From a virus (lineage: Duplodnaviria; Caudoviricetes), in IMG/VR virus record IMGVR_UViG_3300034166_000463, positions 6,642-70,641 of that record: DNA of 64,000 nucleotides, one strand, 5' to 3'. The translations under genes were made by a program, and so were the position numbers. Under the pieces are notes generated by a model. The model was not told the origin of the DNA. It worked only from the letters and a program-made list of their open reading frames with translations, and did no database searches. Below, in pieces: positions 1 to 62,619 of the stretch. Within the stretch, counting starts at the first letter, position 1, and every line of letters starts with the position of its first letter.

Positions 1-24
1 TGGCTTGCGTGATTTATCCTCTCC

Positions 25-140
25 CGAACGATTAAATCCTCCTGCAGCCCGTGAACGCCACTCCGCCACTCCCTGAGCCTCCTAGCCACGCCACCGCTGA
101 ACTGCGGGGCGGTGGGCATAGGTCTAGCGACTTGTTCGCC
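25..140 (-). mobile_element. attC-like site A (degenerate/composite)
   Basis: Left end CGAAC-GATTAA (25-35); right arm GGGCATAGGTCTAGC-GACTT-GTTCGCC ends at 140. The arms pair poorly, but GTTCGCCA is the exact reverse complement of TGGCGAAC (283-290) at the far end of this cassette. Confidence 0.6.
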
Positions 141-296
141 ATTGTCGCCAAATGGAGGAAAGATGCCGAGATGCACCGCAACTCATGCCGACTTCAAGAG
201 CAGGCAGGCAGGCGAGACAAAGCCGACAGGCACTATCAACGAAGCCTAGACCTCGACGCCTGTGCAAAGTGCATTGAGGATTTGGCGAACGCCTAG
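51..296 (+). CDS. cassette-borne hypothetical protein
   Basis: 81-aa ORF that starts inside attC-like site A. Its stop TAG is supplied by the next site (AAC GCC TAG). Confidence 0.6.
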   Translation: MNATPPLPEPPSHATAELRGGGHRSSDLFAIVAKWRKDAEMHRNSCRLQEQAGRRDKADRHYQRSLDLDACAKCIEDLANA

Positions 297-415
297 CTCT
301 GGCACCCTCACCACTAACTACGAAAAAACTATGCAAACCGAAAACGATACATCGAAGCCCGAAGACTCACCCCGACAAGAGACTGGTGAGGGTTGCTCAG
401 GAGCGACTTGTTCGC
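285..415 (-). mobile_element. attC-like site B
   Basis: GCGAAC-GCCTA-GCTCTGGCACCCTCACCA pairs with TGGTGAGGG-T-TGC-T-CA-G-GAGC-GACTT-GTTCGC, giving R box, unpaired spacer, L box and extrahelical G/T. The reverse complement reads like a canonical attC (AAC AAGTC GCTCC...GAGC TAGGC GTT). Confidence 0.85.
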
Positions 416-675
416 GTCTCTTCCGAGTGCAAGTGACCTTCGACACGGTGATCTACGCCGAAGACGAAAAGGCCGCAAAGCAAAAGGTGAAATACGGCAC
501 GGGCGAAATCGACGACATGCCCATATCGGTGCTGGCGATGCCGATAGAATCCCGCGACGGGCTACCCGCAGGATGGAACGCGGGATGCCTGCCGTGGGGT
601 GATGCTCCCGAAAACACGACCATCGGGGAAATTCTTAACGCGAACTTATTGTTCGGTTTTTCATATCCCTCTTAA
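331..675 (+). CDS. cassette-borne hypothetical protein
   Basis: ATG 331 lies in the loop of site B after an A-rich leader. The ORF reads through the cassette end (ACGCGAAC 638-645) into flanking DNA. Confidence 0.7.
   Translation: MQTENDTSKPEDSPRQETGEGCSGATCSRLFRVQVTFDTVIYAEDEKAAKQKVKYGTGEIDDMPISVLAMPIESRDGLPAGWNAGCLPWGDAPENTTIGEILNANLLFGFSYPS
643..656 (-). other. attI-like/secondary recombination target at array boundary
   Basis: AAC-TTATT-GTTCGG: inverted AAC/GTT triplets separated by a 5-bp AT-rich spacer, exactly where cassette B ends. Confidence 0.6.
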
Positions 676-782
676 ACGGGTAGGTGTCTCCATGAATGAC
701 ATCTGTGGCTAGCTCCAGCTAATCAGCTTCCATGAGTTTACAAACAAGGAAGCAGAGCATTCAACATCAACCAACCAAAACA

Positions 783-971
783 ATGCCATCAATGTCATAC
801 TGCCGCTTCGAAAATACGCTTGAAAACCTAAACCTTTGCCACATCGGTTTACAAGAAAGGGTTCACCGCAGATCAGATTTCAGCGAATCAGAACGCAAAG
901 CCTTACAAGAACTAGTTGATGTCTGCCGCGATATTGCAGACGAATTCTCCATCGAAGTGTTTTCATCGTAA
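783..971 (+). CDS. small phage hypothetical protein (MSYCRFENT family)
   Basis: N-terminal MSYCRFENTL motif common in phage early proteins. Confidence 0.6.
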   Translation: MPSMSYCRFENTLENLNLCHIGLQERVHRRSDFSESERKALQELVDVCRDIADEFSIEVFSS

Positions 972-1080
972 TCATTTCAAATAAAGCGACGGCAGAAAAT
1001 ACTCCTGTAATCGCAGAAAGTTAGCCATATCTAGTGTTCGATTATATTTTAGCCTCAACTAAACCAAAACAAATAAACAA

Positions 1081-1671
1081 ATGCAAAAAGCAGCAGACAA
1101 ACTAAGAACAATCCAAGTTGACCTCAACGCACCAAAAAACCTTGAGAACAAGTTTGGAAATTACAAATACCGATCCGCAGAAGGAATTCTTGAAGCCCTC
1201 AAGCCATTTCTTCATGCAGTGGACGCAATCCTAACCATCAGCGATGAAATTGTTGAAGTTGGTGGGCGGGTTTACGTAAAAGCTACAGCAACATTCACTC
1301 ATGCAGGAGAAAGCATCTCCACCACAGCATTTGCTCGTGAAGCTGAAAGCAAAAAAGGTATGGATGACGCTCAAGTGACGGGCGCTTGCTCCTCCTACGC
1401 CCGTAAATACGCCCTGAACGGCTTATTCTGCATTGATGACACCAAGGATGCAGACGCCACGGAAACCCACGGAAAGGGCAATTCTGATCAAAGTAAAGCC
1501 ACCTCGCAAAAAAGTGACGGAATGATGGACAAAATCATCAAATCCTTTAAGATCCAAAAATCCTTAGAGGATCTAAATGCCAAAATGGAAAAAGCCAGAA
1601 ACACTCCCTATGGGAAAGAACCACTCGTAGTCGCAGCTTATTCAGAATGCGCTTCAGTTTTCATTAAGTAA
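1081..1671 (+). CDS. ERF-family single-strand annealing protein
   Basis: APK...NKFGNYKYRSAEGILEALKP and AQVTGACSSYARKYALNGLF motifs. Confidence 0.9.
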   Translation: MQKAADKLRTIQVDLNAPKNLENKFGNYKYRSAEGILEALKPFLHAVDAILTISDEIVEVGGRVYVKATATFTHAGESISTTAFAREAESKKGMDDAQVTGACSSYARKYALNGLFCIDDTKDADATETHGKGNSDQSKATSQKSDGMMDKIIKSFKIQKSLEDLNAKMEKARNTPYGKEPLVVAAYSECASVFIK

Positions 1672-1699
1672 ACAACAAACAAACAAGAAAAACAAAAAT

Positions 1700-1993
1700 A
1701 TGGGACTTATTATTAGCGCCAGCATCAAAAAAGAAGACATCGCAAAACTCACCGAAGATCAAATGATCAAAGGTAAAACCGCCACATTCATTCCTTTGTC
1801 CATTTTTGTCGATGACAAGAATGACAATTATGGAAATAACGTATCCGTTCAGCTTTCTCAAAGCCAAGAAGATCGCGAAGCAAAGAAAACCAAAACCTAT
1901 CTAGGTAATGGTAAGGTTGTGTTTTCAAAAGGTGACATCAAAACAGCAAAAGAAATTGCAGCAAATAGCGGCAGTTCAGACGAAGCATTCTAA
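1700..1993 (+). CDS. small putative ssDNA-binding protein
   Basis: D-x-YGN...SQ...RE...YLGNGK pattern, acidic tail ending DEAF, and position after ERF. Confidence 0.5.
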   Translation: MGLIISASIKKEDIAKLTEDQMIKGKTATFIPLSIFVDDKNDNYGNNVSVQLSQSQEDREAKKTKTYLGNGKVVFSKGDIKTAKEIAANSGSSDEAF

Positions 1994-2464
1994 ATGAGCA
2001 CTCTCCACCAAGTAGCCTCGGCCAAAGATGGAGAGACATTCATTTCAATTGGCCCAGTAACCATTCACAAGCAGTTCAATCCCAAAACAGCAAAGAACAA
2101 TAAAATCTTCTCATCCGTAGTATTGAAAAGCGGATCAGACGAAATGTTCATGACAATGTGGGAAACAGCCGCTGAATGGAAACTACCACTAGGAGAAACA
2201 CTGACACTGCGAGGAAGGTTTACAAAAAACACCTTCAATGGATCAGCAAGTCTTAATTGTGATGAGCTATCAAAACCTGAAGGAGCAGTCGCAGTTAAGC
2301 CTGAAGACATCCAAAAGCCAGTTGAGAAGCCAACAATCAAAGAATGTCTTGAAACTGGACTGAGAGCAGCCGATTACATGATTCGCAAAGAACGCCCTGA
2401 ACTTTCAGAAGCAGCATTCACTTTCGCTGCCAATGCAATGCTTCAAGGCGCAAAAGCAGAATGA
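1994..2464 (+). CDS. putative OB-fold nucleic-acid-binding protein
   Basis: Beta-rich N-terminal half (MTMWE...GETLTLRG...FNG), in the recombination cluster. Confidence 0.45.
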   Translation: MSTLHQVASAKDGETFISIGPVTIHKQFNPKTAKNNKIFSSVVLKSGSDEMFMTMWETAAEWKLPLGETLTLRGRFTKNTFNGSASLNCDELSKPEGAVAVKPEDIQKPVEKPTIKECLETGLRAADYMIRKERPELSEAAFTFAANAMLQGAKAE

Positions 2465-3110
2465 TCTCTTGCTGTTGTGTTAACCGTGCAGCAGATAGAA
2501 CCAAGAGACTACGGTAAAACGAAAATACGAATAAATACCTAGAGTTGCATGGTGCTCTAAGGATTGAAACGGAACCGACGGAGCGTAATGCCGTCCCAGT
2601 AAACGGTAAGCTGGAAAATTTCTGCGTCGTCCCTGTATAAGCTCCCTTAGGATCATAAACAGTTACGCATAGCCGCAACGAGACGGAAGGCACGGCTCCA
2701 AAGCAAGTTTTGGTAAACGCGGAGAAACCAATTCTCCAGTAGCTTGTGTAAAATTGGGACACAACGGAAAGACGTTGCCTTAAGCATAAACTAAGAAACC
2801 CTCTGAGATATGTGGTATTTATGAAACCGCTAGTAGCGTCAAGCTAGCCCTGCATACGGTAAGCAGGAATCTTTACAGCAAATTCAGAAAGAGTCTTTCT
2901 GTCACCACAAGCAAGATGCTGACGCAACTGGTGAACTCATAAGCACATCTGCCCGTGGATGGTAGACTCACGCGGGAACCTTTCCCTGATGACAGCAAAG
3001 CTGAATCAGAAAACGTGCATACGGACTTCCAGCGCCTTGCGCCTAGCTCACTAGCTGAGTCGGACGGAACCGCTACAACGTCATGGTAGCGCCGGACAGG
3101 TAACTGGCTT
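2465..3110 (+). ncRNA. large structured non-coding RNA candidate 1
   Basis: About 650 nt with no credible ORF and many stems: 2465-2471/2502-2508, long-range 2531-2539/2814-2822, repeated GGTAA-loop hairpins at 2596, 2849 and 3091; followed by a T-tract. Confidence 0.6.
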
Positions 3111-3126
3111 TACTTTTTATTTAGGT

Positions 3127-3384
3127 ATGACTAAAACAAAACCACATCCACTCTGCGCAATGAATAAACCATGGGGAGTGATTCGCTTCATTCATTTCAA
3201 AGATGGCTCTGAACGCAAGTTCTACACCATGATCAACCAGATGAGCGGAAGTAGAATAAGCGCTTTTAATAATGATCCTCCGAGCACTGATGACTCTTTG
3301 CCATGGATTAAATCAGTGTTCAAAGACATCCGCAAAAAAGCAACCAAGGTTTTAGAATACCAAGGAACCAAGCACTTTGAATAA
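3127..3384 (+). CDS. hypothetical protein
   Basis: ORF in the co-directional gene run. Confidence 0.55.
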   Translation: MTKTKPHPLCAMNKPWGVIRFIHFKDGSERKFYTMINQMSGSRISAFNNDPPSTDDSLPWIKSVFKDIRKKATKVLEYQGTKHFE

Positions 3385-3607
3385 TTATCTATTAACTCAT
3401 CAAGTATCAATGTTCATTCCTATTAAAATCGTAAATAATAAATGGCAAAGCGACTTAGTTCATTTGCGTTCTATCTTCAGGCAACTAAGAAATGAAGCAG
3501 GACTTTCCGATAACAAGCCAGACCCGGAAGATGCCTACGATAAAATTCTGCAAATCGCAGGAAAATACAATTTGGGACTAGAAACTAACGTCTCGGAAAA
3601 CAACTAA
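3377..3607 (+). CDS. hypothetical protein
   Basis: ORF filling the gap in the gene run; start uncertain. Confidence 0.45.
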   Translation: MNNYLLTHQVSMFIPIKIVNNKWQSDLVHLRSIFRQLRNEAGLSDNKPDPEDAYDKILQIAGKYNLGLETNVSENN

Positions 3608-3615
3608 TTTTAGTC

Positions 3616-4029
3616 ATGGCTAAAAAATCGACAAAAAAAAGAACCAACATCGAACGACCTTACTGCAATGGAGAATGGACAGAAGCCAGATATACAAGCT
3701 TTATCAAAAGCGCCTTGCGAGGAGCTAGGTGGCCCGAAAAATACCGAGCCATCAACCTTGCCTTCGTCGAGCACGGAATCAACCCCGCCACTGGGCGCAA
3801 ATGCAAGCTACACAAATGCTCCGTATGCGGAAATCTATTCCCCCAAAACGCTGTTCAAGCGGATCATATTATCCCAGTTGTCGGATCAGAAGGATTCGTC
3901 TCATGGGATCGGTTTATTCAGAGGCTGTTTTGTCCCGCAGAAGGATTTCGTGTCGTCTGCAAAAAGTGCCACGGCGAAATAACAGCGCAAGAACGTATCG
4001 GAAGACAGTTTAACAAGCTGCTTTCATAA
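3616..4029 (+). CDS. HNH endonuclease
   Basis: CSVC...QADHIIPV...CKKCH Zn/HNH motifs. Confidence 0.85.
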   Translation: MAKKSTKKRTNIERPYCNGEWTEARYTSFIKSALRGARWPEKYRAINLAFVEHGINPATGRKCKLHKCSVCGNLFPQNAVQADHIIPVVGSEGFVSWDRFIQRLFCPAEGFRVVCKKCHGEITAQERIGRQFNKLLS

Positions 4030-4052
4030 AGCCCTTCGGGCTGGAGGTATTT

Positions 4053-4271
4053 ATGAATGAACTACATCTTCCTAATCATCTATCTTCAGAAGCACATGCT
4101 TTGTTCAGAGCATATCAAGAAATTTGGAGCATTTACGAACCCATCACACAACGCTTAGGCGAACCTTACTGGCAAGTAGCTAGAGCAGGAATTCACTCTA
4201 TCCTAGAAGCTATAATCATGCTAGATGATCCGGAAATAGGAAAACAAATAAAAAACAAACACTCTCAATAA
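4053..4271 (+). CDS. hypothetical protein
   Basis: ORF preceded by GGAGG. Confidence 0.6.
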   Translation: MNELHLPNHLSSEAHALFRAYQEIWSIYEPITQRLGEPYWQVARAGIHSILEAIIMLDDPEIGKQIKNKHSQ

Positions 4272-4298
4272 CAACAACCAAGAAAAAAACAAACGACA

Positions 4299-5306
4299 AT
4301 GAGCCACAATATAACTGAACGCGACATTCAAGCAGCATCTACACAAGCTTGGCACGGACTAACTACCATTGTAGATACGGTAACACGGGAAAACTCCATG
4401 CCATTCGACGTGGTAGAAAGCCCTATCTACTACAAAGTGCAAAAGCCACACGACACAATTCCTGACTTTTATCAGGACGTGATGATCGAATCCCCTGAGT
4501 TCAAGCAACTCATTGCTAATGACGACTTCCTCCCAATCGGAGAACCGTATGGTAGCAGCTACCACCCCTCCACGGTGGAGACGTTCTGGAGCGTCATCGC
4601 TAAAGGAATGGAGGAAATTCCGTTCGAGATTGCTTCCGCTGGCACGGTAGACAACCGCTGCAAGCTATTTGCCTCTCTTAAAGTAACAGATGGATTCAAG
4701 ATCGGTGATCGTGAGTTCAACGACTTTATCACAGTAATCGACTCCTACGACAAAAGCACCAGCTTCCAAGCCCGCTACACCAATATCTGCGTAGTTTGCG
4801 CCAATACGTTCGCAGCATCCATGCAAACCGGACAGACCATCGGTAAAGCCAAGCACACACTCAACCTTGATGTAAACATCGAACGGCTTGTTGTAGCCAT
4901 GAAAAACTTCATGGGAACAAGTAAAGTTTACCAAGAAGTCTTGAGTCAGGCTGATCGCACGGTATGCTCACCAGACGAAGCTCGCGCATGGCTCACTGGT
5001 ATCGAAGGGCGGAATACTGAAAATCTCTCCAACGGACTCAAACAAAAAGGAGCAAGAATGATGGAACTGTTCACTGGTGGACGAGGAAACGTAGGACGCA
5101 CACGCCTTGACGCATTCTCAGCGCTCACAGAGTTCCATAGTCATGAATCTTCCAACCGCAAAAGCAATGGCTCTCAATACTACTCCTCAGAGTGGGGAAC
5201 ATCGGCTCAAGTGAAAACGCTTGCTATTACCGCACTGGAGAAAGACTGGACACGCCATGTAAGACATGGTGAAAAGCTCCTTACCGAAGAAATGCTAACC
5301 GTTTAA
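4299..5306 (+). CDS. DUF932/DUF945-family protein
   Basis: MSHNI...AWHGL, SYDKST...VVCANT, KHT and TRLDAFSALTEF motifs. Confidence 0.85.
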   Translation: MSHNITERDIQAASTQAWHGLTTIVDTVTRENSMPFDVVESPIYYKVQKPHDTIPDFYQDVMIESPEFKQLIANDDFLPIGEPYGSSYHPSTVETFWSVIAKGMEEIPFEIASAGTVDNRCKLFASLKVTDGFKIGDREFNDFITVIDSYDKSTSFQARYTNICVVCANTFAASMQTGQTIGKAKHTLNLDVNIERLVVAMKNFMGTSKVYQEVLSQADRTVCSPDEARAWLTGIEGRNTENLSNGLKQKGARMMELFTGGRGNVGRTRLDAFSALTEFHSHESSNRKSNGSQYYSSEWGTSAQVKTLAITALEKDWTRHVRHGEKLLTEEMLTV

Positions 5307-5309
5307 ATC

Positions 5310-5579
5310 ATGAAGAAAAAAAAAGAATTTCCATGCGCTGATCTTCTTGGAGAAGCGAGACTAGACGGATATGATTTAATTCATGACTTATCGTTTATCA
5401 CAGCAAGTCTTCGCAATGCGTATAAAGCTGGCGATTTTGATAACAATGAAGAATTGTGTTTAAAAGAAGCTAAAGCCTCAAAAGAAGCAATCTGCACAAT
5501 GATTAACTCTTTAATGAAGATTAGAGACAAAATCACATTTTTTCAGGCATGGGCTGAAGACAACTCGCCACTTAAATAA
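5310..5579 (+). CDS. hypothetical protein
   Basis: Tightly packed ORF. Confidence 0.6.
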   Translation: MKKKKEFPCADLLGEARLDGYDLIHDLSFITASLRNAYKAGDFDNNEELCLKEAKASKEAICTMINSLMKIRDKITFFQAWAEDNSPLK

Positions 5580-5581
5580 TC

Positions 5582-5710
5582 ATGAGGCCACCAACCAACT
5601 GGGCAGCCATCAAAGCTTGGTGCATCGAAAACAACGCCTCAATATGGGACATCCTAGACTGGCGACCTGTTGATGGGGTGTATCGCTTAGCCACTAAACA
5701 AAAGCCATGA
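5582..5710 (+). CDS. small hypothetical protein (42 aa)
   Basis: MRPPTNWAAIKAW...; its TGA overlaps ATG 5707 (ATGA coupling). Confidence 0.5.
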   Translation: MRPPTNWAAIKAWCIENNASIWDILDWRPVDGVYRLATKQKP

Positions 5711-5715
5711 AAACC

Positions 5716-5832
5716 AACGCCTAGCTCTGGCACCGCGCCGGAAGCGCGTGCCGCAACTCACAAATCTATGAACCAAAATCAAGACTCCGACAACACAGCA
5801 AGCGCGGTTGCTCCAGCAGCGCCTTGTTCATC
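5716..5832 (-). mobile_element. attC-like site C
   Basis: AAC-GCCTA-GCTCTGGCACCGCGC...GCGCGG-T-TGCTCCAGCAGC-GCCTT-GTTCATC; left half nearly identical to site E. Confidence 0.85.
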
Positions 5833-6046
5833 CATTACGGTCCGATTCGTCGACGACACCCAAACTGGCAGATGCTGGTTCGAGGAAAAGCTCACAAATG
5901 GCCAGTGGGCGATGATCCCAGAAACCAAGATGACCTGCGAAGGCAACTCTCGGCACTCCCTCGCGGAAGTGATCGAGCGTCGTCGCCAGCAACGCCTGAT
6001 GATATTCCGCAACGTCGGCAAGGAGGAGGTCATTCCCATTCGATGA
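5768..6046 (+). CDS. cassette-borne hypothetical protein
   Basis: ATG in the loop of site C; GC-rich; ends at GATGAAC, the complement of GTTCATC. Confidence 0.75.
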   Translation: MNQNQDSDNTASAVAPAAPCSSITVRFVDDTQTGRCWFEEKLTNGQWAMIPETKMTCEGNSRHSLAEVIERRRQQRLMIFRNVGKEEVIPIR

Positions 6047-6169
6047 ACGATCAAATCCAGCCATGAGCCTTCCCAAAATCTGCACGTGCCCCACGGTCCC
6101 ATCTGCGGACTGCCCGTTCCACCACCAAGAAGCTCGTGGCTCATTGGCTGCGATGCCGGGTTCAGCTTC
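6046..6169 (-). mobile_element. attC-like site D
   Basis: AAC-GATCAA-ATC-CAGCCA-TGAGCC pairs with GGCTCA-T-TGGCTG-C-GAT-GCCGG-GTT, a clean stem with two extrahelical bases. Confidence 0.9.
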
Positions 6170-6587
6170 GGTTGACGCCATTTTGTCCAGCGACAGTGGC
6201 GACAGTTCGCTGATCCACAACCTCGCAACTCGTGCCCGCGAAATGGAGGCGCTTGCCACCACGCTGATGCGGACATGCTACGACGAAGCGAACAGGCTCG
6301 CGAACCACGGCAGCAGCGGACTTGAAAACAGGGTTATGTCTCAACTCTACGACGCCGCCAACGACGCGAAGAAGAAGCTGAACTTTATGTTCGACGTAGC
6401 TTTCACGGTCGAAGGACCTTGGGAGCTTCCTGAGGATGTCCCAGCAATCCAATTAATTGCTGGACTTCAAAAAAGAATTACAGATTTGACATTAGCCCAT
6501 GCAAATAAGTCAGAAGACATTACCGAAGCGTTTGGGTATTGCGATTCTTATAAAGTCGATGAACCCCCAGAAGTAAAATTCTTTTAG
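6063..6587 (+). CDS. chimeric ORF: cassette D protein fused in frame to the interrupted resident gene
   Basis: GC-rich part ends at GAAGCTGAAC (6374-6383). The remainder (FMFDVAFTVEG...) continues the orphan start ATG AAA ACC AAC at 5707. Confidence 0.75.
   Translation: MSLPKICTCPTVPSADCPFHHQEARGSLAAMPGSASVDAILSSDSGDSSLIHNLATRAREMEALATTLMRTCYDEANRLANHGSSGLENRVMSQLYDAANDAKKKLNFMFDVAFTVEGPWELPEDVPAIQLIAGLQKRITDLTLAHANKSEDITEAFGYCDSYKVDEPPEVKFF
6381..6394 (-). other. attI-like/secondary recombination target at array boundary
   Basis: AAC-TTTAT-GTTCGA, the same architecture as 643-656. Confidence 0.65.
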
Positions 6588-6601
6588 CCTTGACTAAAAA
6601 T

Positions 6602-6823
6602 ATGAGCAATACCATTACACTCCTCCCTCACATCATCGTAGATGGCTACTGGGTAGACGACCGCACCAAGTTCGAGGGGTATGTCATATCCCAATCCAAT
6701 GACATCGAAGAAGATGACGACAGCATCTTCTTCTACGGGTTAACCGAGTCCGAAATCGCTGAGTCACTTGGCAAAGAAACAAGTGAGGACTTTGTAATCA
6801 CCCATTATGAAATCGACAACTAA
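6602..6823 (+). CDS. small acidic hypothetical protein
   Basis: DGYW-DD...DDSIFFYGL pattern; very acidic. Confidence 0.65.
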   Translation: MSNTITLLPHIIVDGYWVDDRTKFEGYVISQSNDIEEDDDSIFFYGLTESEIAESLGKETSEDFVITHYEIDN

Positions 6824-13270: not shown

Positions 13271-13346
13271 CGTAGAATGGCTCGAAAGGTTAGGCGCTTG
13301 GCAGCAAACTAAGAATATGTCGGTTCGATTCCGGCTTCTACGTCCA
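13271..13346 (+). tRNA. tRNA-Cys (GCA), atypical A33
   Basis: Acceptor CGTAGAA/TTCTACG, discriminator T plus CCA, T-arm GTCGG-TTCGATT-CCGGC, anticodon loop CA-GCA-AA. Confidence 0.85.
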
Positions 13347-14970: not shown

Positions 14971-17900
14971 TTACTGTTTCTCGTTTTTTACTGGCTCCCG
15001 CAATCTATCTTGCATAAAGCCTCTAGACTCACGAGTTCCCGGCAACACTTCAGACATAAAATAAAGCAAGCTGTCTTTAAGCGATATTCCTTTGTTGCTA
15101 GAAGCGTAATCCGTCATGTTGTAATCAAGAAGCAATTTAGCAGCAGCAGCGTAATCATAAGCAGCCGCAGTTGGAGCGGTAAATTCAGCCGTTCCTTCCA
15201 AAAAGCCCGGACGATATTCTCTGATATTTGCGGTATTTCGTTCAACATCCATAAACAATGCCGCAGCCTCTTCAGAACCGGGATTTGTAAAAGCCTTGTC
15301 AATCAAACCACGAACAGGAGAATAACCAAATGCAACACCCGCAAGAGGAATTGCTGTAATAGATTCCTGAGCAGTTGTGTTTAATATCTCCGCTAAAGCG
15401 GATGCCTGCGCTTCATCTACTGTTCCACGGTCTTGAAACAAAGGGCGATCCTTACCAAAGATCACCGCCATTATCGCACGATGGATGACATTTGAATCTT
15501 CGTTCGGGACAATAAGATCATTTGTCACTTGTTGCGCACGTAGCACTGCCTCGTCATCGTCATCGTCACCTGCTTTGAAAACTAAATACAACACGGCTGG
15601 AAGAAGCATCTTCAGCTTCATTGGGTAAAATAGGATGTTCTGGGTAAGCGTTGTGGCTACATTCTCCATCGCCTCCCTGCGACTATCCTCCGCATCTTTC
15701 TCGCTCACGTAGTAATAGTCCATTTCAGATAAGCCCCTTTCTTGCTGCGTAAACATGGTATGAGTCAGCACAGACGTATTACTAGATGTTGAAGCAGTAT
15801 GATTGCTAAACCTAACTAAGCTTTTCCAAAAAGCATTGAGGACAGGGCTTTGGTCACGTGTTTGGAAGAACCAGCTCTTCTTAGATTGGTCAGATTGAGC
15901 CATTACATCATTGACTTTTAGCTTAGCCTGTTGAGCCAATTCTTTTGTTACATCATTCTTGCGAAGCAAAACATCATCAACTGTTTTGACGTTCATCTTC
16001 TCAGCAAGTTCTATCATGAAAATTGTCCCCGCCAACATACGCTCAGGCTTTCCAATCGTAAAACTTAACGTTTTTTCAGCAAAGCGCTCGTAAGCCCTAA
16101 GGCCTCGTCCAACTTTAGCTTTTACTTGGCCCACTCCGTATCGCTCTTGTCCACGAATCATATCCTCTGCTACATCTTGACCGTCAGATGCGCGATAGTA
16201 AACATACGGACTTGTCTTCTGAATAAAGTCCCTAACCTCATTCCTGAATTTGCTGCTAGTTAGCATTTTAGATAATGTGGAAAAATACAAACCAACAGAC
16301 TTGGGCTTGTTTGCAACCAACTTGCCTACAGTGTAGCCAAAGCTAGGACTAACTGACTGATCCCACCATTGAAGAGGAGAAGCCAAAGCTCGCATAATAT
16401 ACATCGAGCTAAGAAATCGGAGTGTTTCAGCCCCACCAGTTTGAGCTGTTCCAATGGCAGAATCGTTCTGGACAATTGTCTCAAGCTCGTAAGCTACCGC
16501 CGCAAAAGCCGTATTAGCGTCTTTTTTCCATCTGTAATGCTCATTGTTGCGGGCATTTATTTCACGGATAGTTTCAAATTCGTCTAAGTTTTCCCCGAAT
16601 GATTGTAAAGTGTCCTCCATGTCTGAGTCTGTGATTTCAATCGGACCATGAGGAGCCCTTACTTTACCTATTGAATGACGCAATATTTCGTAAGAAGGAG
16701 TGACGTTAAGGCGGTAAATGGCATCATCAACCATTGAAAGAGGGGTAGATAAACCGTTTACCATAACAGGACGATAAACCCTATTGCGCTCAAACGGCTC
16801 ACCCTTAGCAATTCCACCGAAGAAAGCAGCTTCATCCAAAGCTACAATTTCAATCGGATCAGAAATGTAACGACCCTCTCGGCCTTGCTTGCGGGCAGTT
16901 GGGTCTTTTGCGTAGCCAAGACGCATCGGGACATTTGTTGCGGTTGGTTTAAACGCTTGGATGTCTGCGTGTTTCCATTTTGTTTTCTCGTCCAGTGCAT
17001 CAACATCCCTGCCTTTCTTGGATGACAAAGCTAAAGACAAGTGCATAGCTGCATCAATGTCAGCAAAAACACTAGAAAGGGTTTTGGCGTAAGCATCCAC
17101 CTCGGACTTCTTGTTGTCCTCAATTGCATCAATCAATGCCGACTCAAGATCAGCAATCGCTTTCTCTGCTTTTTCCTCAGCTAATGGATCATTGTTCTTG
17201 ATTGAAATAACACTCGTGGCTTTTCGCATGATTGCATCAATCTCAGTTGCAAGCGGCTGATCACGGACAAGATCAAGGTGTCCTCCGCTCCAGTATTTAG
17301 AAACCTTGTTTTTACCATATTTTTTTTCCTGCGCTATTACAAAGTCTTGTGATTGGCGATGACCAAAATTCTGCTGTGTTGCCCATGTAGTGTAAGCGTG
17401 AGCCAAAGACATGCCATGAGCGTCTTTAATTCCACGGATTTGAGCCAGTAAATAGCCAATAGCATGATTCTTAGCACTGCTGCCGACTTCTTTTGCTGAA
17501 TTACCTATTTCTTCCTTTGCTATCCTGCGTGAGGTTTCATAACCTTCACGGCCACTAACCCCATCAAAACCATGGTCAAGAATGCCAACCAAATGACGAA
17601 CAGCCTGCTTTGCTGAAAAACTCTTACGAAAACGGCTACGAATACGGGCATCATGATGGTGAGCTAACCTCATCATTGTAAGATCAGTGTTACTGTCAGA
17701 TACAGTCATACCTGCAACTATGCGCTTAGCAATCAAGTCAGCTTCCAATGCGGAAAAAACCAAAGAGAAAGTTTTTTCAATCTTGAAAAGCTGCATACTT
17801 TCAGTGACCAGCTTGCCAGCGTCTTCCATTTTGAACGTAAAGCTCCGAGGCATCCCGTTCTCCCCCTTGGTATCGGTATCAATATCGTCAATCTTCGCCA

Positions 17901-20900
17901 TGAATTTCATGACTTCGCTTTTAACGTGCATGTAACGATTGCCTTCAAGCTTTCCAGAGCTGTAAGCCAAAACGATCTGACGAATCAAAGACTTCGATTG
18001 GGACATGGCCGCTTTCGTAATCCGACCATCCATCTTGATCGTTTTAGCTTTGCCGTTTGAGTGGCGGTTTCGGATGTCTCCTAGCCATTTAGTGATGCGA
18101 GCCTCAAACTCGTCGGCAAAAGCGTCGGCTACTTCGGCGCGGGTCATGTCTGGCTTTGCAAGCCTCCATTCTTCACGCTTGTTTGTCACCTCGTTAAGCT
18201 TGTCGATGGATTTGAACTTAGCGTCAGTATCCTTGTTAACTTCCTCAAAGAAATAGGATGGCGTTTGCGTTCCTTGGGATTGGTTTCCGCTAAGCGATTG
18301 AGCCGCCATGGCGACATGGGCGATCTCACTGTTCACATTTTTTCTCGTAACCGTGGGGAATGCTCTGATCATCTCATCCGCTGCCGTAGTCGGCATCAGG
18401 ATCATCGACATTCCTTCTTCCTTGTGATACATCCCAATGCGTTCAAGTCTCTCCTCAAAGTTCTGCGGAAGACGGATTAAGTTGACGGTGTTCTTTTTGC
18501 TTCTCTTGAGAAGGTTGTAGCGGTTAGCGTCTTTCGGATCGGTGAGGATTGCCACCGCATTATCCATCATTCCACGGTAATTTGCCTCCGCCGCTTCTGA
18601 CTTAGCCTGACTAAAGTAGTCATCAAGAAGCTTCATTTCAATCTTCGCCATCTCAACAGATATCTCAATGGTTCCAAGTGGATCAAATTCCACAAAGTTC
18701 TCCTCGGTGTTTCGTTGGTCACGATAGACATCTTCAAGGCGCTCCTCCGCGAATTCGCTGAGAGCCCTCACAATGGCCTCTTTTTGCGCGTAGAATGCCC
18801 TTCTCTGGGCTTTCAAGCTCGCGCTGGAAGCCTCATCCATAGAGGGCTGATCACCCGTCCACGCCTCCCGTGCAGCAACGCCTGATTCAGTCAACCCAAG
18901 ACCCTTGGCAACCAATGTAATATTCACCCCAGCCTCACGGGTCATTGGCTCAATTCCCGGAAGAATTTGATTGTTATCCTGACCAACCGCTGGAACACCA
19001 ACAACTCCACGATGGTAAGTTTTTCCAATTGGCTGACTATAGTCAGTATGGTCGATTAAATCCAATGCCGCCTGATTCGCAGCCAAGCCACGAGAAATAA
19101 CATCCAACTGAATCTCCAGCTTATTGACAAGATCACGCTGCTCAGCAGTTTGTCCCTTGTTAATGTAGGAAGGATCATCGGTAGCAAGTGAGCGATCATA
19201 CAGCGCATCCTCTTCAGCAAAAGAAAGGTAAATGCTTTCAACGTATTCAGAAAAAGGCTTTCCGTTCGGATCGGTTTTTAACCGCTCGGTCATCATATCC
19301 AAAGCGGAAGTAATCTCACTAGCCAAATCGAAATTATCAAGATCGCGCCCCTCTTCCATCCGTTGACGGACAAGCTTGATGAAGTTCTTAACTTGGGCGT
19401 TGCGCCTAGTGTCCTTACCTACTGGAATGCTTTTTTGTTTAGTCTTGCCTGAAGACTCAGCAAGCTCTTGGGCGATGCTGTCAGCGAAAGCAGCCGCAAT
19501 GGTTCTTTCGGCATGTTGCATCAACTGCCCTTTGAACTTAGCGGTGCTATCCACGCCAAAAGACCTACGACGCAAGCTGATCAAATCCTGAGGACTAATG
19601 GAATCGGGATTTCCCAGAATATAAGGCAAGCGATAACCTTTGGTGGAGCCATCAATACCAATCAAGGCCATTCCTTGCTTGGTTATACTATCCAAAACAA
19701 GGTTAACAACATCCACGTTCGCGTTGTAAGAGCGGATTAAGTCACCAATGCGCGTCTCGTTTTCTTCGGGTGAAACTATTGTGCGGAAAGGATTAGCACC
19801 GCTTTCAATTAGAACCGTGTCTTCATTTTGCTCACTAAAAATATTACGAACAAAAAGCTCACGATTAATTGTATCAAGAAGCGTAGCCATCTGGTTGAAA
19901 GAAGCCTTAAACAAAGGATCGTTACGGAACTGTCTACGGACGAAAGAAGACATTCCTTTGGCAACTTGATCAACTTTGCCTTCCTCAAAAATCACGCTCT
20001 CTTGAAGCATATCAGCTAAGCGCTGAGCAAAGCGCTGAGGGTATCCCATCATATCGCTAACTTCCTTTGTTACTTTTCCGCGAGGAAAAGAAACTCTTTT
20101 TTCTAGTGCTTCATAAAGCTCGTAATGTTTCTTGGCTTGAGCCTTTGTCATTTTACTGACGTTTTTTTCAAGTCTTGCAATTTCATCTCTAACTTCTTGC
20201 TCCGCTTGATCCATGTAACCAGCAGGAAGAATGTTGCGAAGCTCTTCAATAATATCGTCGCTCATCTCAATCTCAAGATTGATTCCCTTGAATCTCTTAA
20301 GTTGAGAATAGTCCAGCGAGCTTTTGTTGTTAGCAGCGTCGATGCGGGTTTTCTCAAGGCTCTGACGGATGGCCTCCTCAGCCTTAAGTTTAATCCGCTT
20401 CTGGACGTAAGGGGAAAGCTGGAGAACATTAGCGTTCATGTTGCTAATTCGCCTATCAGCAAATCCTTGCGTAAGCGAAGTGCGATTACCCGGAAGTGAA
20501 GGACGACCTAGGTTCTTAGCCTCACCAACGTAAATCTTTCCAGCATTCTCCTTCCATGCAACCGGAGCTACTACAGGCTGAGCCAATTCATTTCCTTTAA
20601 TCTCATCTTCATCACGAAGATATCCGGGCTTCTCAAGCATCTCGCGAGCATCACGGCTAGGCTTTAAAGGCTGAACCCCTTCACGAGCCTTCATAGCCGA
20701 GGCAATAATTGAATTAAGACTGTTAAGCAAAACAATGTCAGCATCAGAGTAGAACGCGGACTTACCGGTGAAATAAGATCCCCCACCATTAGCCATTATC
20801 ATCCCCATAATTTCAGACTTTACCTTATCGGAAAAGCCAGAGGTGACTGAGAATATTGCGTCGGTAAGATTATCCTCTTCTTCAACAACCTCAATCTCTC

Positions 20901-23900
20901 CATTCAGTCTCGCTTCCTCCTCGGCATTAGCCTGAGCTAAACGCTCAGCCCTTTCTTGCTGACCTTCCTCAAAGCCTTGAATAGCTTCTTCATCGGCATC
21001 GGAACGCTCGATTACCGAAGACTCGGAAATCCAATCCGCTTCCGTGCCTCCAAGCTCAACTTCACCGGATCGTGCAATGTCCATCACAGCATTGATCAAA
21101 CTATCTCCAACAACATCAGGAAGGAAAGACGGGGCAAGCGACTCAATGCCGGAATACGCTTGGTCAAAAAACTGCTTGGCCTTGGAATTGGAAAAGATTG
21201 TTCCAACCAAAAGAAGATTTGCAGCAAAAGTTGCATCTCCACCGAAAAGAGCGATTTGGTCAGCGGTTAACTCACCAACCTCTAATTCACGAGCAAGCTC
21301 AATGGACTTGATGAACTGAGCTTTAACTAGCTCGCGGATTCTTTTTTGTTGAGAATCAGTAAATTCAACAGGAGAACCTTGAATCAAGCGCTGGAAGTTT
21401 GCTTCAATTGCTTCATTTGAAGTGGACGTATCAATGGTAGTCTTCCTCCATTTTCCAACAGGACTTGTCTGAGATTCAATTGACTCAGCCCTAATTACAG
21501 GATTAAGCGTGGCATTTACCTTCCCAGCTAAATCGTTTACCATGTCTACAATCGAAGCGTTTTTCTTGGATTGAATAGAAAGGCTGTGAGCAATTACCAT
21601 CGTAGCCTCATCCACCATGCGCTTGTCACGCATAGATACAGACTGAGGAACGTAGATAACATTTGGATTACCGTTTCTTCCCTCAAAGATTCGGATGCCC
21701 GTATCGGAAAGCTGGTGCTTGGCGGCAGTTGCCTCATCTGGAATCACCGCAATTGTATTACCGGGAAGTGTAAGAAGAAATTGCTCAATGATCGGACCAA
21801 CCGTAGAATTAAGAAAAGTAACTTTAGAAGCGTCGATCACTTGACGGCTGTTTTCGGGCTTCATTACCTCTGAGTGAGCGAGTCTCCAGATGTTCCTTGC
21901 TTCCTCGGATGAGGCGAAGGTGTTGTTGCCTTCGTCTAGGATTGGTTTGTTTTTTTTGTTTTTGTTTTTGTTGTTGAATTGGACAAGCGCGTCATCCGAC
22001 TCAAGCAAGGTAACATCCGCATACTCAATAATGGTTTGAAGAACCATCGAAGCAACCCCCTTATCTTTGACGATAGAGCGGTCAATCATTTCTCTTTCAA
22101 AACTCGCCTTGAACGAAGCCAAATCATGCAGGAACCTTTCAGAAGAAGTAAAGTTGTAGCCGTTATTGCTTCCATATTGCTCAAGGAATCCCTTCCTGAT
22201 CTCATCAAAGAAATCCTTACGAGCAGGATTGATGTTTGGAAAAATTCCTACAAGACCACGTTCAAGCAGGGACTTGTCACGCATTACCTTGAAGTAATTC
22301 CTAAGCTGAGTTTGATCCATTGCGTTTAGGTCATCCTCACTAAATTCCTCCAGCCTTTCAACCTGATCCTCAACGTAAGTGTCTTGAGTTCCCAAAAACG
22401 GACTTCCATCATCAACTCTACGGCTAACTGTCTCCATCCTGCTATATCTAGGAGCCGTCCCCATGCGGCGGCGATCCTCCAAAACTTCCTCTACGGTCAC
22501 AAAACCATCCTCGTCAGCCTGTAATAGATCGAAGTAGAAGACGCGCCCTGCGGTGGCGCTACGCCCTGTAGGAGTGTTTGAACCTATAAGTAAGCTCCAC
22601 TGTGCAACTAAGCGCTCGCGGGCTACCTGAAGGCTACTAGCACGGCGCTTAGCTGCCTCACGTTGACTGGAAGCTGCACCAGACTTCACTTCATCCATTC
22701 CCTCAAGAAGAGGAGAATCCTCGCCAGTAAGGAAAGGACGGGAGCGAACATCATCAAAGCCAGCTTGCTGAGAACTCACTACGATTTCATTGTAGTTGGT
22801 AAGCTGAGACTGTTTTCGATAAAAATAACGACCGTCCTTGTCTTGTTTAAGCTCAGAATATTCAGGGACATTTGGATGAGTAAGCGTTCCATCTTCTTTA
22901 GTTGTGACTAAATTGGCTACACTATCAGGCAGGTAAACATCATACTCTTCGGCTTCAGTATAAACATACGGCTCATATCCCTCCCCAAAACTAAGGCGAT
23001 CAAACGCCTCCTCCATCTCAAAACCGAAGTTGGCAGAAAACTGGTAGTCGCGCTCCTTCTCGAAATACTTCATCGCAAAAGACAAGTTCTTCAACGTCCT
23101 AGGACTAAGTGCCGTATCGCGGAGCTTAATGAGCTGTTCGTATTCTGGAACGTAAGCAGCATCCGTAACTGTCCGATTGCCCTCCTTCTCCACATTGCTC
23201 CTCCACTTACGATCCATGAAAGCCTTTGTCTGCTTGCGAACCAAGTTCACAGCCTGAACAGACTCATAAAGAGAACGATCAAACATCGCTTTTTGATTAC
23301 CCTCCCCTACAACTTTAATCAAATTTTCAGCAAGATCAGTAAGCTTCTTTTTGTCCACTCCAGCTTTGAGAACAGGAAGCCCGTTGCTTAAAACAAGCGT
23401 GTCGGCGCTTTTTAGATAGGCCCTATCCATCGAGACGTTCTTAACCTCGACGTATTCCATGACTTTCAGCATCAAGGCTTCGTGCATCCTACGAATTTGC
23501 AAATCCAAGCCATTAGTCAGCGTCCCATTATCTGTTTCATTGCTGAAGGCTTGGTCAAAGATTGGAAGCGAACGCCCAGCAAGTGTCTGCATTCCGCCAA
23601 TCCTAGGCATAAACTCAGAGCCTTGATATAAGCTCCTGATCTTGGTGGACCACTGGCGCATTTCTTCTAGGTAAGAGAAGAGATCGGCAACAACTTTGAT
23701 TGGGTCTTCGTTGTTATCGCCCCTGAATCCTCTCTTAAGTCTACGAAGCCCTCCTACAAGCCTGTTGAGCTTTTGGTGATCAAAGATCGGCATGGCCTCT
23801 AGTAAGCTTTCGTAGCGCACGGAGTCATCGTCAGGATTAACTGTCTTGTCGAATGAGAATCCAGCGGTCTGAGCGTAAGTGTCGATCATTTCGACATTGC

Positions 23901-26900
23901 GAATCGCTCCAATGTTTTCAGCAACAAAAAAGTCAGCAAAAGCATTACGTCCGGAAGCCGTGAAATTTGATTCAGTATCATGTCGATACCTTTCAAGCCC
24001 TGCATTCCACTCACGCTCCGCTGGGGTAAGTCCTTCATCTCCGGGTCTTTCCCACTTAGAATTGGGATCAAGCCCAATAGCTAATCCATCAGCTTCAGTT
24101 TGACCAACGGCAGATTCAGTTCTCTGAGGATAGATGAAGCGCGAAGAATACGAATAAGGAGCATCCGCGTTTGAATTATCGTATCCGTTCTGATGCTCGT
24201 ATGGAAAAATATTGGAGTAACCAACATCCTGAACAACATCAAGCAAATCATCTACCCCAGTATCAACTGGAGGAAGAGACGAGTAAGAATTAGGGTTTTC
24301 AGATTCAGGATTAATAGCCTGAACCTTAATCGCCGTTCCGAAGCCAACCGTCCTCAAGCCAAACTCACCGATAGCACGGTTCTTAGCTGTCTTCAGGGCG
24401 TAGTTGTAATCATCCACCGCACGGGTAAAAGCGATGACAGATTTGTAGTCATCTCCTAAGGAGTCCTTTTGTTCCAGCTTTGGAAGGATGTCGGAATTAG
24501 GAAGGTTTTTGGTGTGCTGGATTCTTGCGTTGTGTGCCTTGCGAATCTCTTGGATTTCTTCAATAACGCTTTGCTCTTTTGCAACATAGGCATCAAACAA
24601 AGACTTTGCTTCACCACGTAAGCCGTTGCCAAAATCATTCTTTTGATCACTAGCAGCCATCTCATCAGACCACATAGGAAGGCGCTGAAGAAGGAGCTTC
24701 AAATGGTTTTCCATCTTAACAGCCAACTCTTCAGGGGTAATCGTAGAATCCTGATCCGCAATGTAATCACGAGTCTCCAAATCTACACCTACCAACAAAT
24801 CCCTGTTTAGCCTGACTAAATCAATACTGTGTGGATTCAGCTTCATCGCTTTACTCCATTCAATAAGCTTACGCTTACCAGCAAACGTAGAAAGGTCTAA
24901 ACCATCAAGCTCTTCCCTTGCGTGATTTTCAAGCGCTTGATGAGCCATTCTTGCTTCGATGATACGTGGTTGGACACTAGACAGCATTGCTTGCTTGATT
25001 CTTTCGCTTCCGTCGATGACTTCAGAGTGAGAAACACTCCCAGTCATATCTTCAAATAGCTTAGTGAACAGCTTCTCACGATCAATGCGGGTGATGCCCT
25101 CACGATCCGGCTTCATCGCACCAGTCCACAAATCCATATCAGAGAACTGAGCGGGAAGGGAATCACGAAGCAACTGAAGCTTCTCCCACTTCAAAAAGAC
25201 TCCTGTGCGTATCTTCTTCATCGCAGGGGTTTGGTCTTCCGAGTAGCCACCCTTTCCATTCAGTCGGTCAAACTGATCATCAAGAGCCTTCATGTCGAAC
25301 TTCTCACGCTCTAGCAAAGCCCTGAATTCAGGATGTAACCCGATCTCCATCGTTTCAGGATCATGGACAATGGCTATATCAATCGAGATGCGATTGGATG
25401 CGGCAATCCGGTTGCGAAGCTGCCTCATCGGGAACGAATTATTCCTAGCGATGATTTGAAGTTCAGACTCCAAGCTCTTATTGTAAAGCTCCTCCATCTT
25501 TGTCCGCTGAGCTATCGTATCGCTATGAGCGTTCAAAACATCCACGTTCAATCCAGATTCCTTAGTAGCGTCAATCAAGCGTCTCAACGGCTCCTGAAGG
25601 TTGCTCGGAAGCATTCCACGGTGGGTGTTGATCCAAAGGATTGTGCGCATCCTTTCGGCGTAGCGACGAACCATATGACCAATCGCCTTCAAATACTTCA
25701 CCAAGCCTCCCTTTTCCCTTGCGTTGCTCTCATCAAGGATAATTGCCTGCTGAAGCATCTTGGATAGCTGTGACTGGCGTTCTGTCGTAGTTCCCGTCAA
25801 GGCCATCTGCACAAACTTACGCAATAGCTCTCCAGAGATTTCCTGACGTTGCTTCTCGGTTGCTCCTTTCTCATTGTTTGGATCTAGGCTTTTGGTAACG
25901 CCCCTCTCCGAAGCTACCTTTTTTAACTCCTCAAAAAGCGGGTGATCCTTGATCTTGCCTTCCGCAACACCTTTCGATTCTTGCTCCGTGCGAAACTCAT
26001 TGTTCAAATCCCAAAGATTGTCATAGTAGCTAAGAAGTTCTTTTGGGGTAAACGTCCCGTAAGTAACAATGTGGATTCCCTCTTCGCTTAAGACGCTTGT
26101 AATAAGAGCCGCAGCATCATACGCCAAAAGCTCTTGGGCAAATTGATTGCCCGTGTCTGAATTAAAATAAAGAGCAACTAGCTCCTTCTTAAGCTTATCG
26201 TAATCAACAACAATAGATGATGGTTTTTTGGAGCCTTTCTCAGCAGGTTCAGCAAAAATGTAACCATCCCCGTTAATCTTCCGTTGCACAACTTTGAAGT
26301 TATTTCTTGGCGCGACAACCGAAAGAAGTTCTTTAAAAATGGTCTCTACTTCAGCAATGGTAATTTCACCATTAGAGAAGCGGGACATCATAGGCACAAT
26401 ACTCTTGATCGACCTATCGAGAATTGAGCGTGTGTATCTAGCGGAGGTTTTGCGTAGCTGATCATTTAGCGAGTTCTGATTGGCAGCATCAAAGTCAATG
26501 TTTAACGCCTCAAAAATAAGCTCGCCATCCACAACCTTTTTCAGCATCAGAACCTGCTTGTCGTTGCCAGCAATCACAACCGTATCGCCAACACCCATTG
26601 TTGAAGCCATTCCCTTAGGGGGCATGTAGCCATAGCGCTCTTTTCCATTCTCAGAAGACTTGCGTGACCATTTGGCTCCAGCTGCGTCCGTGCCGCCTTT
26701 AAGGGTGGCTTCCTCAACAATGTAGGTTGTTTCAGGATCAAGTCCGTCAGTGATGCTTGGCGCGTCAGCAATAGCCGCTGCCCGCATCGGGACATGACCG
26801 TCTTCGCTCAGCTTTTGAATCGCTTTGATTGTATTGCTAACTCGGTTGCTCGGCCTGTCTGTTTCTGTCTTTGCGTATTCAGCAGCAATAAGTTCTGGCG

Positions 26901-48550: not shown

Positions 48551-48562
48551 TTTTAGTCAGGA

Positions 48563-52801: not shown

Positions 52802-52875
52802 TGGTTGCGCAGACGAGAATCGAACTCGTAACTCAAGCTTATGAGGCTCGCATGATACCTTTTCAACACCGCGCT
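52802..52875 (-). tRNA. tRNA-Met(CAT), initiator-like 1:72 mismatch
   Basis: Minus strand AGCGCGG...CT-CAT-AA...GTTCGATTC...CTGCGCA-A-CCA. Confidence 0.85.
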
Positions 52876-52943: not shown

Positions 52944-53026
52944 TTTATTTTTTCCCGCAAGATTTTATTTTTTCCCACGAAGTTTTATTTTTTCCCTCAC
53001 AAAGTTTTATTTTTTTCCTCACAAAG
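52944..53026. repeat. four degenerate ~21-bp tandem repeats
   Basis: Units of the form AAG(T)TTTTATTTTTTCCC(N)CAC. Confidence 0.8.
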
Positions 53027-58552: not shown

Positions 58553-58600
58553 GTTCCAAATTAAGACTTGCATCAAACCCTTAATCAAGTAAGTTTGAAC

Positions 58601-62615: not shown

Positions 62616-62619
62616 AAAC

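Follow-up and report, generated by a model that had tools for sequence, protein, structure and literature searches.

We studied a 64,000-nucleotide stretch of DNA of a freshwater phage (here called the window; bases 6642-70641 of the virus record IMGVR_UViG_3300034166_000463, which has 70,641 bases and is rated complete). Near the left end of the window the element e2 (285-415) forms an imperfect hairpin that holds the stop codon of one short open reading frame (ORF) in its spacer and the start codon of the next one in its loop. What kind of element serves two neighboring genes in this way, and with which piece of DNA does it move? We propose, with a probability of about three in four, that e2 and its relatives (e1-e8 inside the window) are attC-type sites of an integron lineage of Verrucomicrobiota and phages, that the window phage carries them as integrase-less clusters resembling CALINs (clusters of attC sites lacking integron-integrases), and that crossover takes place at the left AAC.

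Structure and covariation of the elements

On the + strand of e2, GCGAAC (285-290) pairs with GTTCGC (410-415). Between them lie the spacer GCCTA (TAG at 294-296), the 5' stem arm GCTCTGGCACCCTCACCA, a 70-nt loop with ATG at 331, the complementary arm TGGTGAGGGTTGCTCAGGAGC and the spacer GACTT; the 3' arm (384-404) has three single-base bulges. Similarity of e2 to other contigs begins at 284-288 and stops at 414-419. The family to which it belongs comprises elements of 110-125 nt, with three strong copies and several decayed ones in the window, and is characterized by an invariant AAC...GTT box, an unpaired spacer of 4-5 nt, a covarying stem, two to four bulges in the 3' arm and a variable loop.

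Folding of 25 distinct copies (alignment A2) with RNAalifold gave a consensus of an AAC/GUU box, a 4-nt unpaired spacer and a 16-bp stem, in which the 3' arm carried all three bulges and compensatory changes were seen at the five innermost pairs. One stem pair was G.U in 13 of the 25 copies, in agreement with folding of the + strand. The covariance model built from A2, with which the window was scanned with filters off, found five significant hits, all on the + strand, i.e., three strong (284-417, 129 bits; 63114-63234, 99.5 bits; 5712-5833, 88 bits) and two weaker (63552-63640, E 1.9e-5; 63871-63961, E 4e-4). The e2 element itself scored 128.9 bits (E 2.4e-33), and its left arm recurs at 5716 and 63118.

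Folds of single sequences were uninformative; therefore, covariation was used instead. Among 81 distinct aligned copies (alignment A3), 95.7% of the pairing cells were paired as compared with 70.7% in shuffles, and the covariation score was 0.556 as compared with 0.146; none of 500 shuffles reached 0.556, and the score fell to 0.04-0.08 when the pair partners were slid. Double (compensatory) changes were present at 17 of 20 pairs, while the AAC/GUU pairs were identical in 74-77 of 78 cells. In this model-fitted alignment the 3' arm had more unpaired bases than the 5' arm in 83 of 83 rows; it had two to four of them in 82 rows, and the 5' arm had none in 79. Spacer length was 4-5 nt in the 5' arm (75 of the 83 rows) and 4 nt in the 3' arm (81 rows). 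The median loop was 63 nt long (19-86) and the median element 114 nt (53-137); known attC sites range from about 57 to 141 nt. A search of Rfam at gathering thresholds placed no family on the elements and matched only a transfer-messenger RNA (tmRNA) and two tRNAs in the window.

Strand polarity and the mobile unit

Bouvier et al. 2009 (PMC2727003) described the bottom strand, i.e., the recombinogenic one, of the Vibrio cholerae repeats (VCR): each arm has a 5-nt spacer, three extrahelical bases (G, T, T) are located on the R''-L'' arm, and the recombination point is in the R' box, where AAC is usually followed by G. The + strand of e2 presents AAC-G on its bulge-free 5' arm and, from the box inward, the bulges G, T, T on its 3' arm. 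Therefore, the gene-sense strand, which is also the sense strand of intI in related arrays (see below), resembles the bottom strand of an attC site, and with this bottom-like geometry crossover would be expected at AA|C, i.e., at the left boundary of the element. By this analogy the geometry of attC relative to intI is classical, and the ORFs are what is reversed.

Reading phases were analyzed in 88 non-identical element copies, 76 of them with a long in-phase upstream ORF. Relative to AAC, the longest upstream frame was frame 0 in 80 of the 88 copies, and frame 0 was open for at least 50 codons in 76 copies as compared with 18 for frame 1 and 18 for frame 2. Downstream ORFs differed in their phase to GTT (30, 20 and 3 copies in the three frames). 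In six pairs of elements with a common downstream but not a common upstream flank, loop identity was 0.67-1.0, against a background of 0.49 +/- 0.13; in the single opposite pair, where the upstream flank was the common one, it was 0.40.

Two viral records, G006 and G007, share segments that are 96.9-100% identical (four of seven at 99.6% or above) and differ in the order and content of their cassettes; in the array of G006 one methylase cassette takes third place, in that of G007 the penultimate one. The junctions, at G006 positions 11281-87, 12019-33, 12246-60, 13176 and 13854, are each within a few nt of an AAC, and the common sequence resumes at an attI-like AACAGTTAATTA about 50 nt before intI. 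Six of the seven recent breakpoints thus lie at the left boundary of an element or at the attI-like AAC.

The uniform left phase, the breakpoints at AAC and a loop that travels with the downstream ORF argue that the mobile unit, as judged from these comparisons, is the element plus its downstream ORF, the start codon and leader staying with their own gene. The sequence-only reading had expected shuffling to create new C-termini and fusions, an expectation that the same observations do not support (80 of 88 copies in one phase, junctions at AAC, six pairs against one). The neighbor always supplies the same "C GCC TAG", and the attI-like site supplies "C AGT TAA".

A cassette would then consist of C GCC TAG, the loop with ATG, the right arm, the ORF body and a terminal ...(G)AA. 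The site at the 5' end of its own gene would supply the start codon and a leader of 20-28 residues, and its first nine bases would finish and stop whichever cassette is upstream. Exchange of cassettes would be catalyzed by IntI; for the window phage, this enzyme would have to be supplied in trans by the host or by a co-resident phage. Translation would actually start at the loop ATG, and a ribosome terminating at the TAG in the stem might open the hairpin and so couple translation of the next cassette.

Integron integrases beside related arrays

In five contigs (G001, G002, G006, G007 and G011) an array was found directly upstream of an IntI-family gene and in the same orientation. In G001, a 4.18-Mb Verrucomicrobiae contig, a single element is followed by a 94-aa ORF and then by a 340-aa protein that covers positions 9-313 of the integron integrase model TIGR02249 with 242 bits. 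The corresponding scores were 225 bits in G002, 194 bits in both viral G006 and viral G007, and 281 bits in viral G011, the NCBIfam cut-off being 265 bits. An IntI-family gene was present in three of the 10 viral records searched.

The TIGR02249 matches beside the arrays were unbroken over positions 2/14-314, whereas Xer-like hits were split around positions 181-232. Residues 10-313 of the G011 IntI aligned with VchIntIA (IntI4, PDB 2a3v; E 4e-55) through this 181-232 region, and XerA aligned in two pieces. Three of seven further intI loci in metagenome-assembled genomes (MAGs) had element hits upstream, co-oriented, at E<=0.001, and one of these three had ORFs with leaders on the same strand as intI. 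In a Luteolibacter MAG contig (L055), a 414-aa ORF beside intI (198-1442, +) looked tyrosine-recombinase-like by eye from its translation, which suggests that this integron sits on an integrative element.

Elements and cassette ORFs of the window

The elements of the phage form three clusters: (1) a pre-window element, e1 and e2; (2) e3 and possibly e4; and (3) e5, the remnant e6, e7 and e8. The first 60 bases of the record resemble another right arm. The features, all on the + strand, are as follows.

1-35, +: 3'-terminal part of a cassette ORF, which begins in the loop of the pre-window element (G000 / L043, i.e., the window's own record in our locus numbering, 6384-6507, E 6.8e-9) and ends on AAC GAT TAA (27-35) of the next element
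27-136, +: e1, decayed element; AAC 27-29, TAA 33-35, GTG start at 51, right arm to GTT 134-136
51-296, +: cassette ORF, 81 aa; e1 right arm read as RSSDLF; ends on AAC GCC TAG of e2; no Pfam match above cut-off, no PHROG match
288-412, +: e2, element under study; AAC 288-290, TAG 294-296, 5' arm 299-313, ATG 331, 3' arm 384-404, GTT 410-412
331-675, +: cassette ORF, 114 aa; starts in the e2 loop; right arm read as GCSGATCS
5716-5828, +: e3; AAC 5716-5718, TAG 5722-5724, ATG 5768, GTT 5826-5828; 88.3 bits, E 2.9e-22
5768-6046, +: cassette ORF, 92 aa; right arm read as VAPAAPCS; stop TGA 6044-6046 overlaps AAC 6046-6048
6046-6162, +: e4, possible decayed element, by eye only; left end AACGATCAAATCC like that of e1, ATG 6063, ...GGGTT 6158-6162
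6063-6587, +: cassette ORF, 174 aa; SLAAMPGS across the presumed right arm; no family
63118-63229, +: e5; AAC 63118-63120, TAG 63124-63126, ATG 63170, GTT 63227-63229; 99.5 bits, E 2.5e-25
63170-63433, +: cassette ORF, 87 aa; right arm read as VAQERLVR, in a frame different from that of e2
63413-63496, +: e6, remnant; AAC 63413-63415 in phase with the upstream ORF, ATGA stop/start overlap 63430-63433, right arm to GTT 63494-63496
63430-63585, +: cassette ORF, 51 aa; right arm read as VAAAAPCS
63556-63635, +: e7, short element; AAC 63556-63558, ATG 63590, GTT 63633-63635; 26.7 bits, E 1.9e-5
63590-63973, +: cassette ORF, 127 aa; LPLTNCS; reads through the decayed e8 to TAG 63971-63973
63875-63956, +: e8, decayed element without a start codon; 21.8 bits, E 4e-4

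Among the weaker sites of the sequence-only reading, matches to the model were marginal at e1 (50-141, E 1.5) and at e6 (63459-63501, E 0.9), and e4 (6046-6162) gave no significant hit, the nearest match being 6170-6192 with E 6. The e1 element is 96.7% identical over 92 nt to the one that precedes a DNA methylase cassette in viral record G007. The e2 element and its ORF were also found in L021 (window 286-645, 91% identity), behind a different upstream gene. The ORF at 5582-5710 stops 5 nt short of e3, and a mini-frame, ATG AAA ACC AAC GCC TAG, overlaps the e3 left arm. The TAG of e5 terminates the ORF at 62584-63126, and at e7 the upstream stop (TAA 63583-63585) lies at +27, in phase. Homologues of the e5 cassette ORF in L033 (585-693, -) and L036 (5901-6009, +) keep the loop ATG, the leader and the right arm, with A+T-rich sequence in place of the left arm right up to the ATG.

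The GC content of the cassette blocks was 54-56% as compared with 42-43% in adjacent phage genes, and the ten cassette ORFs of the window had no Pfam match above cut-off and no PHROG match. At window 61750-63126 (+) are three tandem GC-rich paralogous ORFs (103, 185 and 168-180 aa) that share sequence blocks, gave weak coiled-coil-like matches and have no element between them.

Translation layout of the cassettes

The stop codons that the sequence-only reading had assigned to the next site (AAC GCC TAG at 288, 5716 and 63118; AAC GAT TAA at 27) are all present in the sequence, as is the combination at 285-415 of a spacer stop, TAG 294-296 ending the ORF 51-296, with a loop start, ATG 331 opening the ORF 331-675. 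Its statement that most cassette ORFs have no stop of their own agrees with the wider set, where 30 of the 76 long in-phase upstream ORFs stop at +6 (29 with TAG, one with TAA) and 74 within +60 of AAC. Its identification of the sites as attC-like was also supported, strongly so by the context in relatives: their anatomy fits, they are tied to IntI-family integrases in relatives, and they carry the stop of one neighbor and the start of the next. The seven N-terminal peptides that it quoted all occur in the translations. The right arm is, however, read in three frames, with single-base arm indels adjusting the phase; therefore, conservation is at the nucleic-acid level, and the peptides proposed as a protein signature are a by-product of it and a poorer handle than the DNA model.

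In 53 of the 88 copies the downstream ORF frame had its first ATG in the loop; eight copies were without an ORF of 40 codons and one was without an ATG. A loop ATG with an open path through the right arm was present in the ORF frame in 60 of 80 cases as compared with 21 of 160 for the other frames (p 1.5e-21). The last cassettes of arrays end CAG AAC AGT TAA or CCG AAC AGT TAA at the attI-like site, which therefore also supplies a stop. Four of ten larger cassette ORFs on the gene strand are N6_N4 DNA methylases above the Pfam cut-off. On sequence grounds, the cassette ORFs are taken to be real genes located on the bottom-like strand.

Two other readings of the layout were dropped: a lipoprotein or signal-peptide meaning of the recurring "...CS", because translation of the right arm uses all three frames, and an intron or translational bypass of the T4 gene 60 kind, because the flanking ORFs recombine independently and the loop ATG is in frame.

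Distribution in related phages and bacteria

The exact 19-nt left arm was found in 23 IMG/VR loci and in six genome contigs, all six of them from MAGs labeled as Verrucomicrobiota, Verrucomicrobiae, Akkermansiaceae, Luteolibacter or Chthoniobacterales, and the right arm was found in nine viral loci; the flanks diverge sharply beyond AAC...GTTC. Run on 307 kb of related loci, the covariance model gave 99 hits at E<=0.05 across 32 loci. Inside each locus the hits were on the same strand, with one weak exception, at a spacing of roughly 300-700 nt, and the arrays counted nine elements in G006, seven in G007 and six in a Luteolibacter MAG contig. Between the window phage and 27 other loci, nucleotide similarity went beyond the elements in only three cases, namely the e2 cassette in L021, the e5 ORF in L036 (left arm missing) and a 165-nt stretch (60913-61077) in L037. 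In the locus L010 (minus strand), a tRNA-like 3' end (GGTTCGATCCCCC...) stands immediately before the AAC of an element at 1241-1343 whose right arm is rearranged.

Assembled contigs of 24 lake or freshwater metagenome runs (2016-2025) hold window 1-6700 wholly or partly. Eight of these runs hold at least half of the sampled words of this region, and three of the eight possibly represent the source sample. In two other samples, contigs match the element but diverge from the window to the left of 286 and to the right of 412 or 414, in line with the flank divergence of the related loci; these contigs may derive from other phages. One contig has joints at 5579>5688 and 5715>6381, whose shorter side comprises just 28 letters; these joints were not used, and loose ends at 5716 and 5772 were attributed to cross-mapping of the copy at 63118.

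Alternative explanations

Several observations weigh against attC-type sites moved by an integrase. The complete genome of the window phage gave no match to PF00589 tyrosine recombinases, TIGR02249 IntI or PF00239 serine recombinases, and the attI-like motif had no match in it with up to three mismatches; because the phage is without an integrase, its set of elements is assigned to the CALIN type. Four of the five array-adjacent integrases scored under the NCBIfam cut-off (194-242 versus 265 bits). The 7-nt attC consensus is RYYYAAC / GTTRRRY (quoted as G|TTRRRY in part of PMC9892861), and the four flanking bases of AAC/GTT in the three strong copies of the window depart from RYYY/RRRY: GGCG, AACC and CCTG precede AAC, CGC, CAT and CGG follow GTT, and beyond the triplets only G before AAC and C after GTT are kept, in two of the three. 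Single-sequence folds of the same copies as single-stranded DNA were unremarkable on both strands (z -0.1 to -1.8), and the alignment A3 was fitted to the covariance model, a procedure that favors structure. The first ATG was downstream of the loop in 14 of the 88 copies and upstream of it in 12, and some cassettes have GTG or TTG codons after the right arm. One segment common to G006 and G007 is just an element: its flanks differ on both sides, and homology stops at GTT. Finally, the same loop types also precede unrelated ORFs, so that linkage between element and ORF is not absolute; homogeneous sites beside unrelated genes are a known feature of chromosomal integrons.

The conserved arms could instead be homology "linkers" for general or phage recombination, exchange being driven by homology as proposed for the promoter/stem-loop cassettes of T4-type phages. 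Such exchange would suit the ERF-family annealing protein encoded at window 1081-1671, the nearly identical arms of 19-23 nt common to otherwise unrelated phages, and the one exchange with breakpoints at both element boundaries. However, at the G006/G007 junctions the elements are decayed and have little in common past AACG(C), yet the breaks are still at AAC, and homology would leave the covarying stem, the one-sided bulges and the adjacency of IntI unexplained. We regard this explanation as improbable.

We give a low probability to hairpins that act in mRNA only, in coupling, processing or stability, and that spread by ordinary duplication with no site-specific recombinase. Every copy is on the sense strand of its flanking genes, G.U pairs are tolerated, the hairpin holds a stop codon in its stem and a start codon in its loop, competing local hairpins occur with some loop types, and the window phage has no recombinase, all as an mRNA element would have it. 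Yet arrays adjoin IntI-family genes in five contigs; one-arm bulges, an unpaired spacer and an invariant AAC/GTT are the signature of attC; and the cassette-sized differences between near-identical phages break at AAC. Moreover, L033 and L036 keep the ORF, the loop ATG and the right arm without a left arm, so the gene needs no hairpin, and no Rfam family matched. A role in mRNA may exist in addition to recombination.

In classical cassettes, as implied by the sequence-only reading, the ORF would belong with its downstream site, crossover would be at the right-hand G|TT, and moves would give a gene a foreign start and leader and create fusions. Such cassettes would account for the order of ORF and then attC, for an upstream ORF in fixed phase with the site that stops it and for one recent breakpoint at GTT, but are very improbable. 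With ORF phases of 30, 20 and 3 relative to GTT most moves would be out of frame with the acquired loop ATG; loops go with the ORF after them; of the seven recent breakpoints, six coincide with the left boundary or the attI-like AAC; and the gene strand has its bulges in the 3' arm, which makes that strand bottom-like.

Comparison with known systems

In the preferred reading, i.e., attC-type sites of a Verrucomicrobiota/phage integron lineage, one of the closest comparisons is with VCR-type chromosomal attC sites. As described in PMC2727003 and in the review PMC8946536, these are likewise imperfect palindromes with AAC/GTT, an unpaired central spacer, a variable terminal loop and two to four extrahelical bases on one arm; in sedentary chromosomal integrons, according to the same sources, sites of one lineage resemble each other much more closely than do the genes beside them, and the arrays are on one strand with the IntI gene at one end, the bottom-like strand being the intI sense strand. 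Unlike VCR, the ORFs described here are read on the bottom-like strand, the site precedes its own gene, the loop holds the start codon and the spacer the stop of the previous gene, the bases flanking AAC/GTT are not RYYY/RRRY, and the arrays are in phage genomes.

Integrons, CALINs and functional attC sites in phages have already been published. The parts of Qi et al. 2023 (PMC9892861) compared here describe integrase-less attC clusters, there in virulent phages, and orphan DNA methylases among the cassettes, as in our arrays. In contrast, those clusters were sporadic IntegronFinder calls of at least two sites in 21 phages of other hosts, and section 3.4 of that paper has no Verrucomicrobiota phages, homogeneous site family, start-in-loop/stop-in-spacer layout or reversed ORFs. 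The new part would appear to be the bottom-strand layout with the start in the loop and the stop in the spacer; in the literature covered, outside which lay the supplementary tables of PMC9892861, we found no description of bottom-strand cassettes with these two features.

Integrons in Verrucomicrobia and "inverted integron-integrase" integrons, as in Treponema, are both mentioned in the consulted part of Cury et al. 2016 (PMC4889954). In the Treponema type, as here, intI and the cassette genes have the same direction; unlike that type, intI is here classical relative to the strand asymmetry of the sites and downstream of the array, and the ORFs are reversed.

The promoter/stem-loop units (PeSLs) of T4-type phages combine a promoter and a hairpin in "mobile regulatory cassettes" that are exchanged by homologous recombination. 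Like the present elements, they are conserved structured intergenic modules between small variable phage genes and are thought to drive modular shuffling. PeSLs are not known to have an integrase, an AAC/GTT box, one-sided bulges or start/stop coding.

Other features of the phage genome

The phage encodes a tmRNA (window 58196-58555, +; Rfam 120 bits, with a tag peptide predicted by ARAGORN), a tRNA-Cys (13271-13346, +) and a tRNA-Met (52802-52875, -). A phage tmRNA beside cassettes that rely on a neighbor's stop codon is a curious pairing. A single ORF of 5098 aa occupies 14971-30267 (-), the presumed structural region. A 17-nt palindromic motif (TTTTAGTCATGGCTAAA and variants) was found at gene boundaries (3608-3624, 6582-6598, 48551-48567, 54482-54498 and 60239-60255); a contig of run X6 has 30 other letters in place of window 2849-3608, ending exactly at the first copy of this motif. 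Tandem repeats of 165-195 nt (40861-41688) lie in a 565-aa ORF (40399-42096, -), and three 20-nt tandem repeats are located in an intergenic region (52944-53013) near the tRNA-Met.

Biological significance

Integrons are usually described as bacterial platforms in which promoterless cassettes are expressed from one promoter and attC trails each gene. In the arrays described here this geometry would be turned round: the site stands before its gene, provides the start and also stops the previous gene, and it does so on phages, some with their own IntI. Since the site would supply the start and leader as well as the stop of the preceding gene, a cassette could be inserted in a phage operon without a start, stop or promoter of its own. 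On balance we lean toward a broader view, in which the integrons of Verrucomicrobiota and their phages would read cassettes on the attC bottom strand with the sites as portable translation modules, phages with IntI would shuffle counter-defense genes such as orphan methylases, and integrase-less phages would join in through IntI supplied in trans. If this is true, these would be natural sites constrained jointly by DNA folding, by integrase recognition and by coding in up to three frames, and related genome pairs would let cassette moves be read at base resolution. In metagenomes, the covariance model would reveal such arrays where a protein search yields nothing but orphan ORFs, and site-specific recombination would be one way in which the mosaic "accessory" regions of phages arise.

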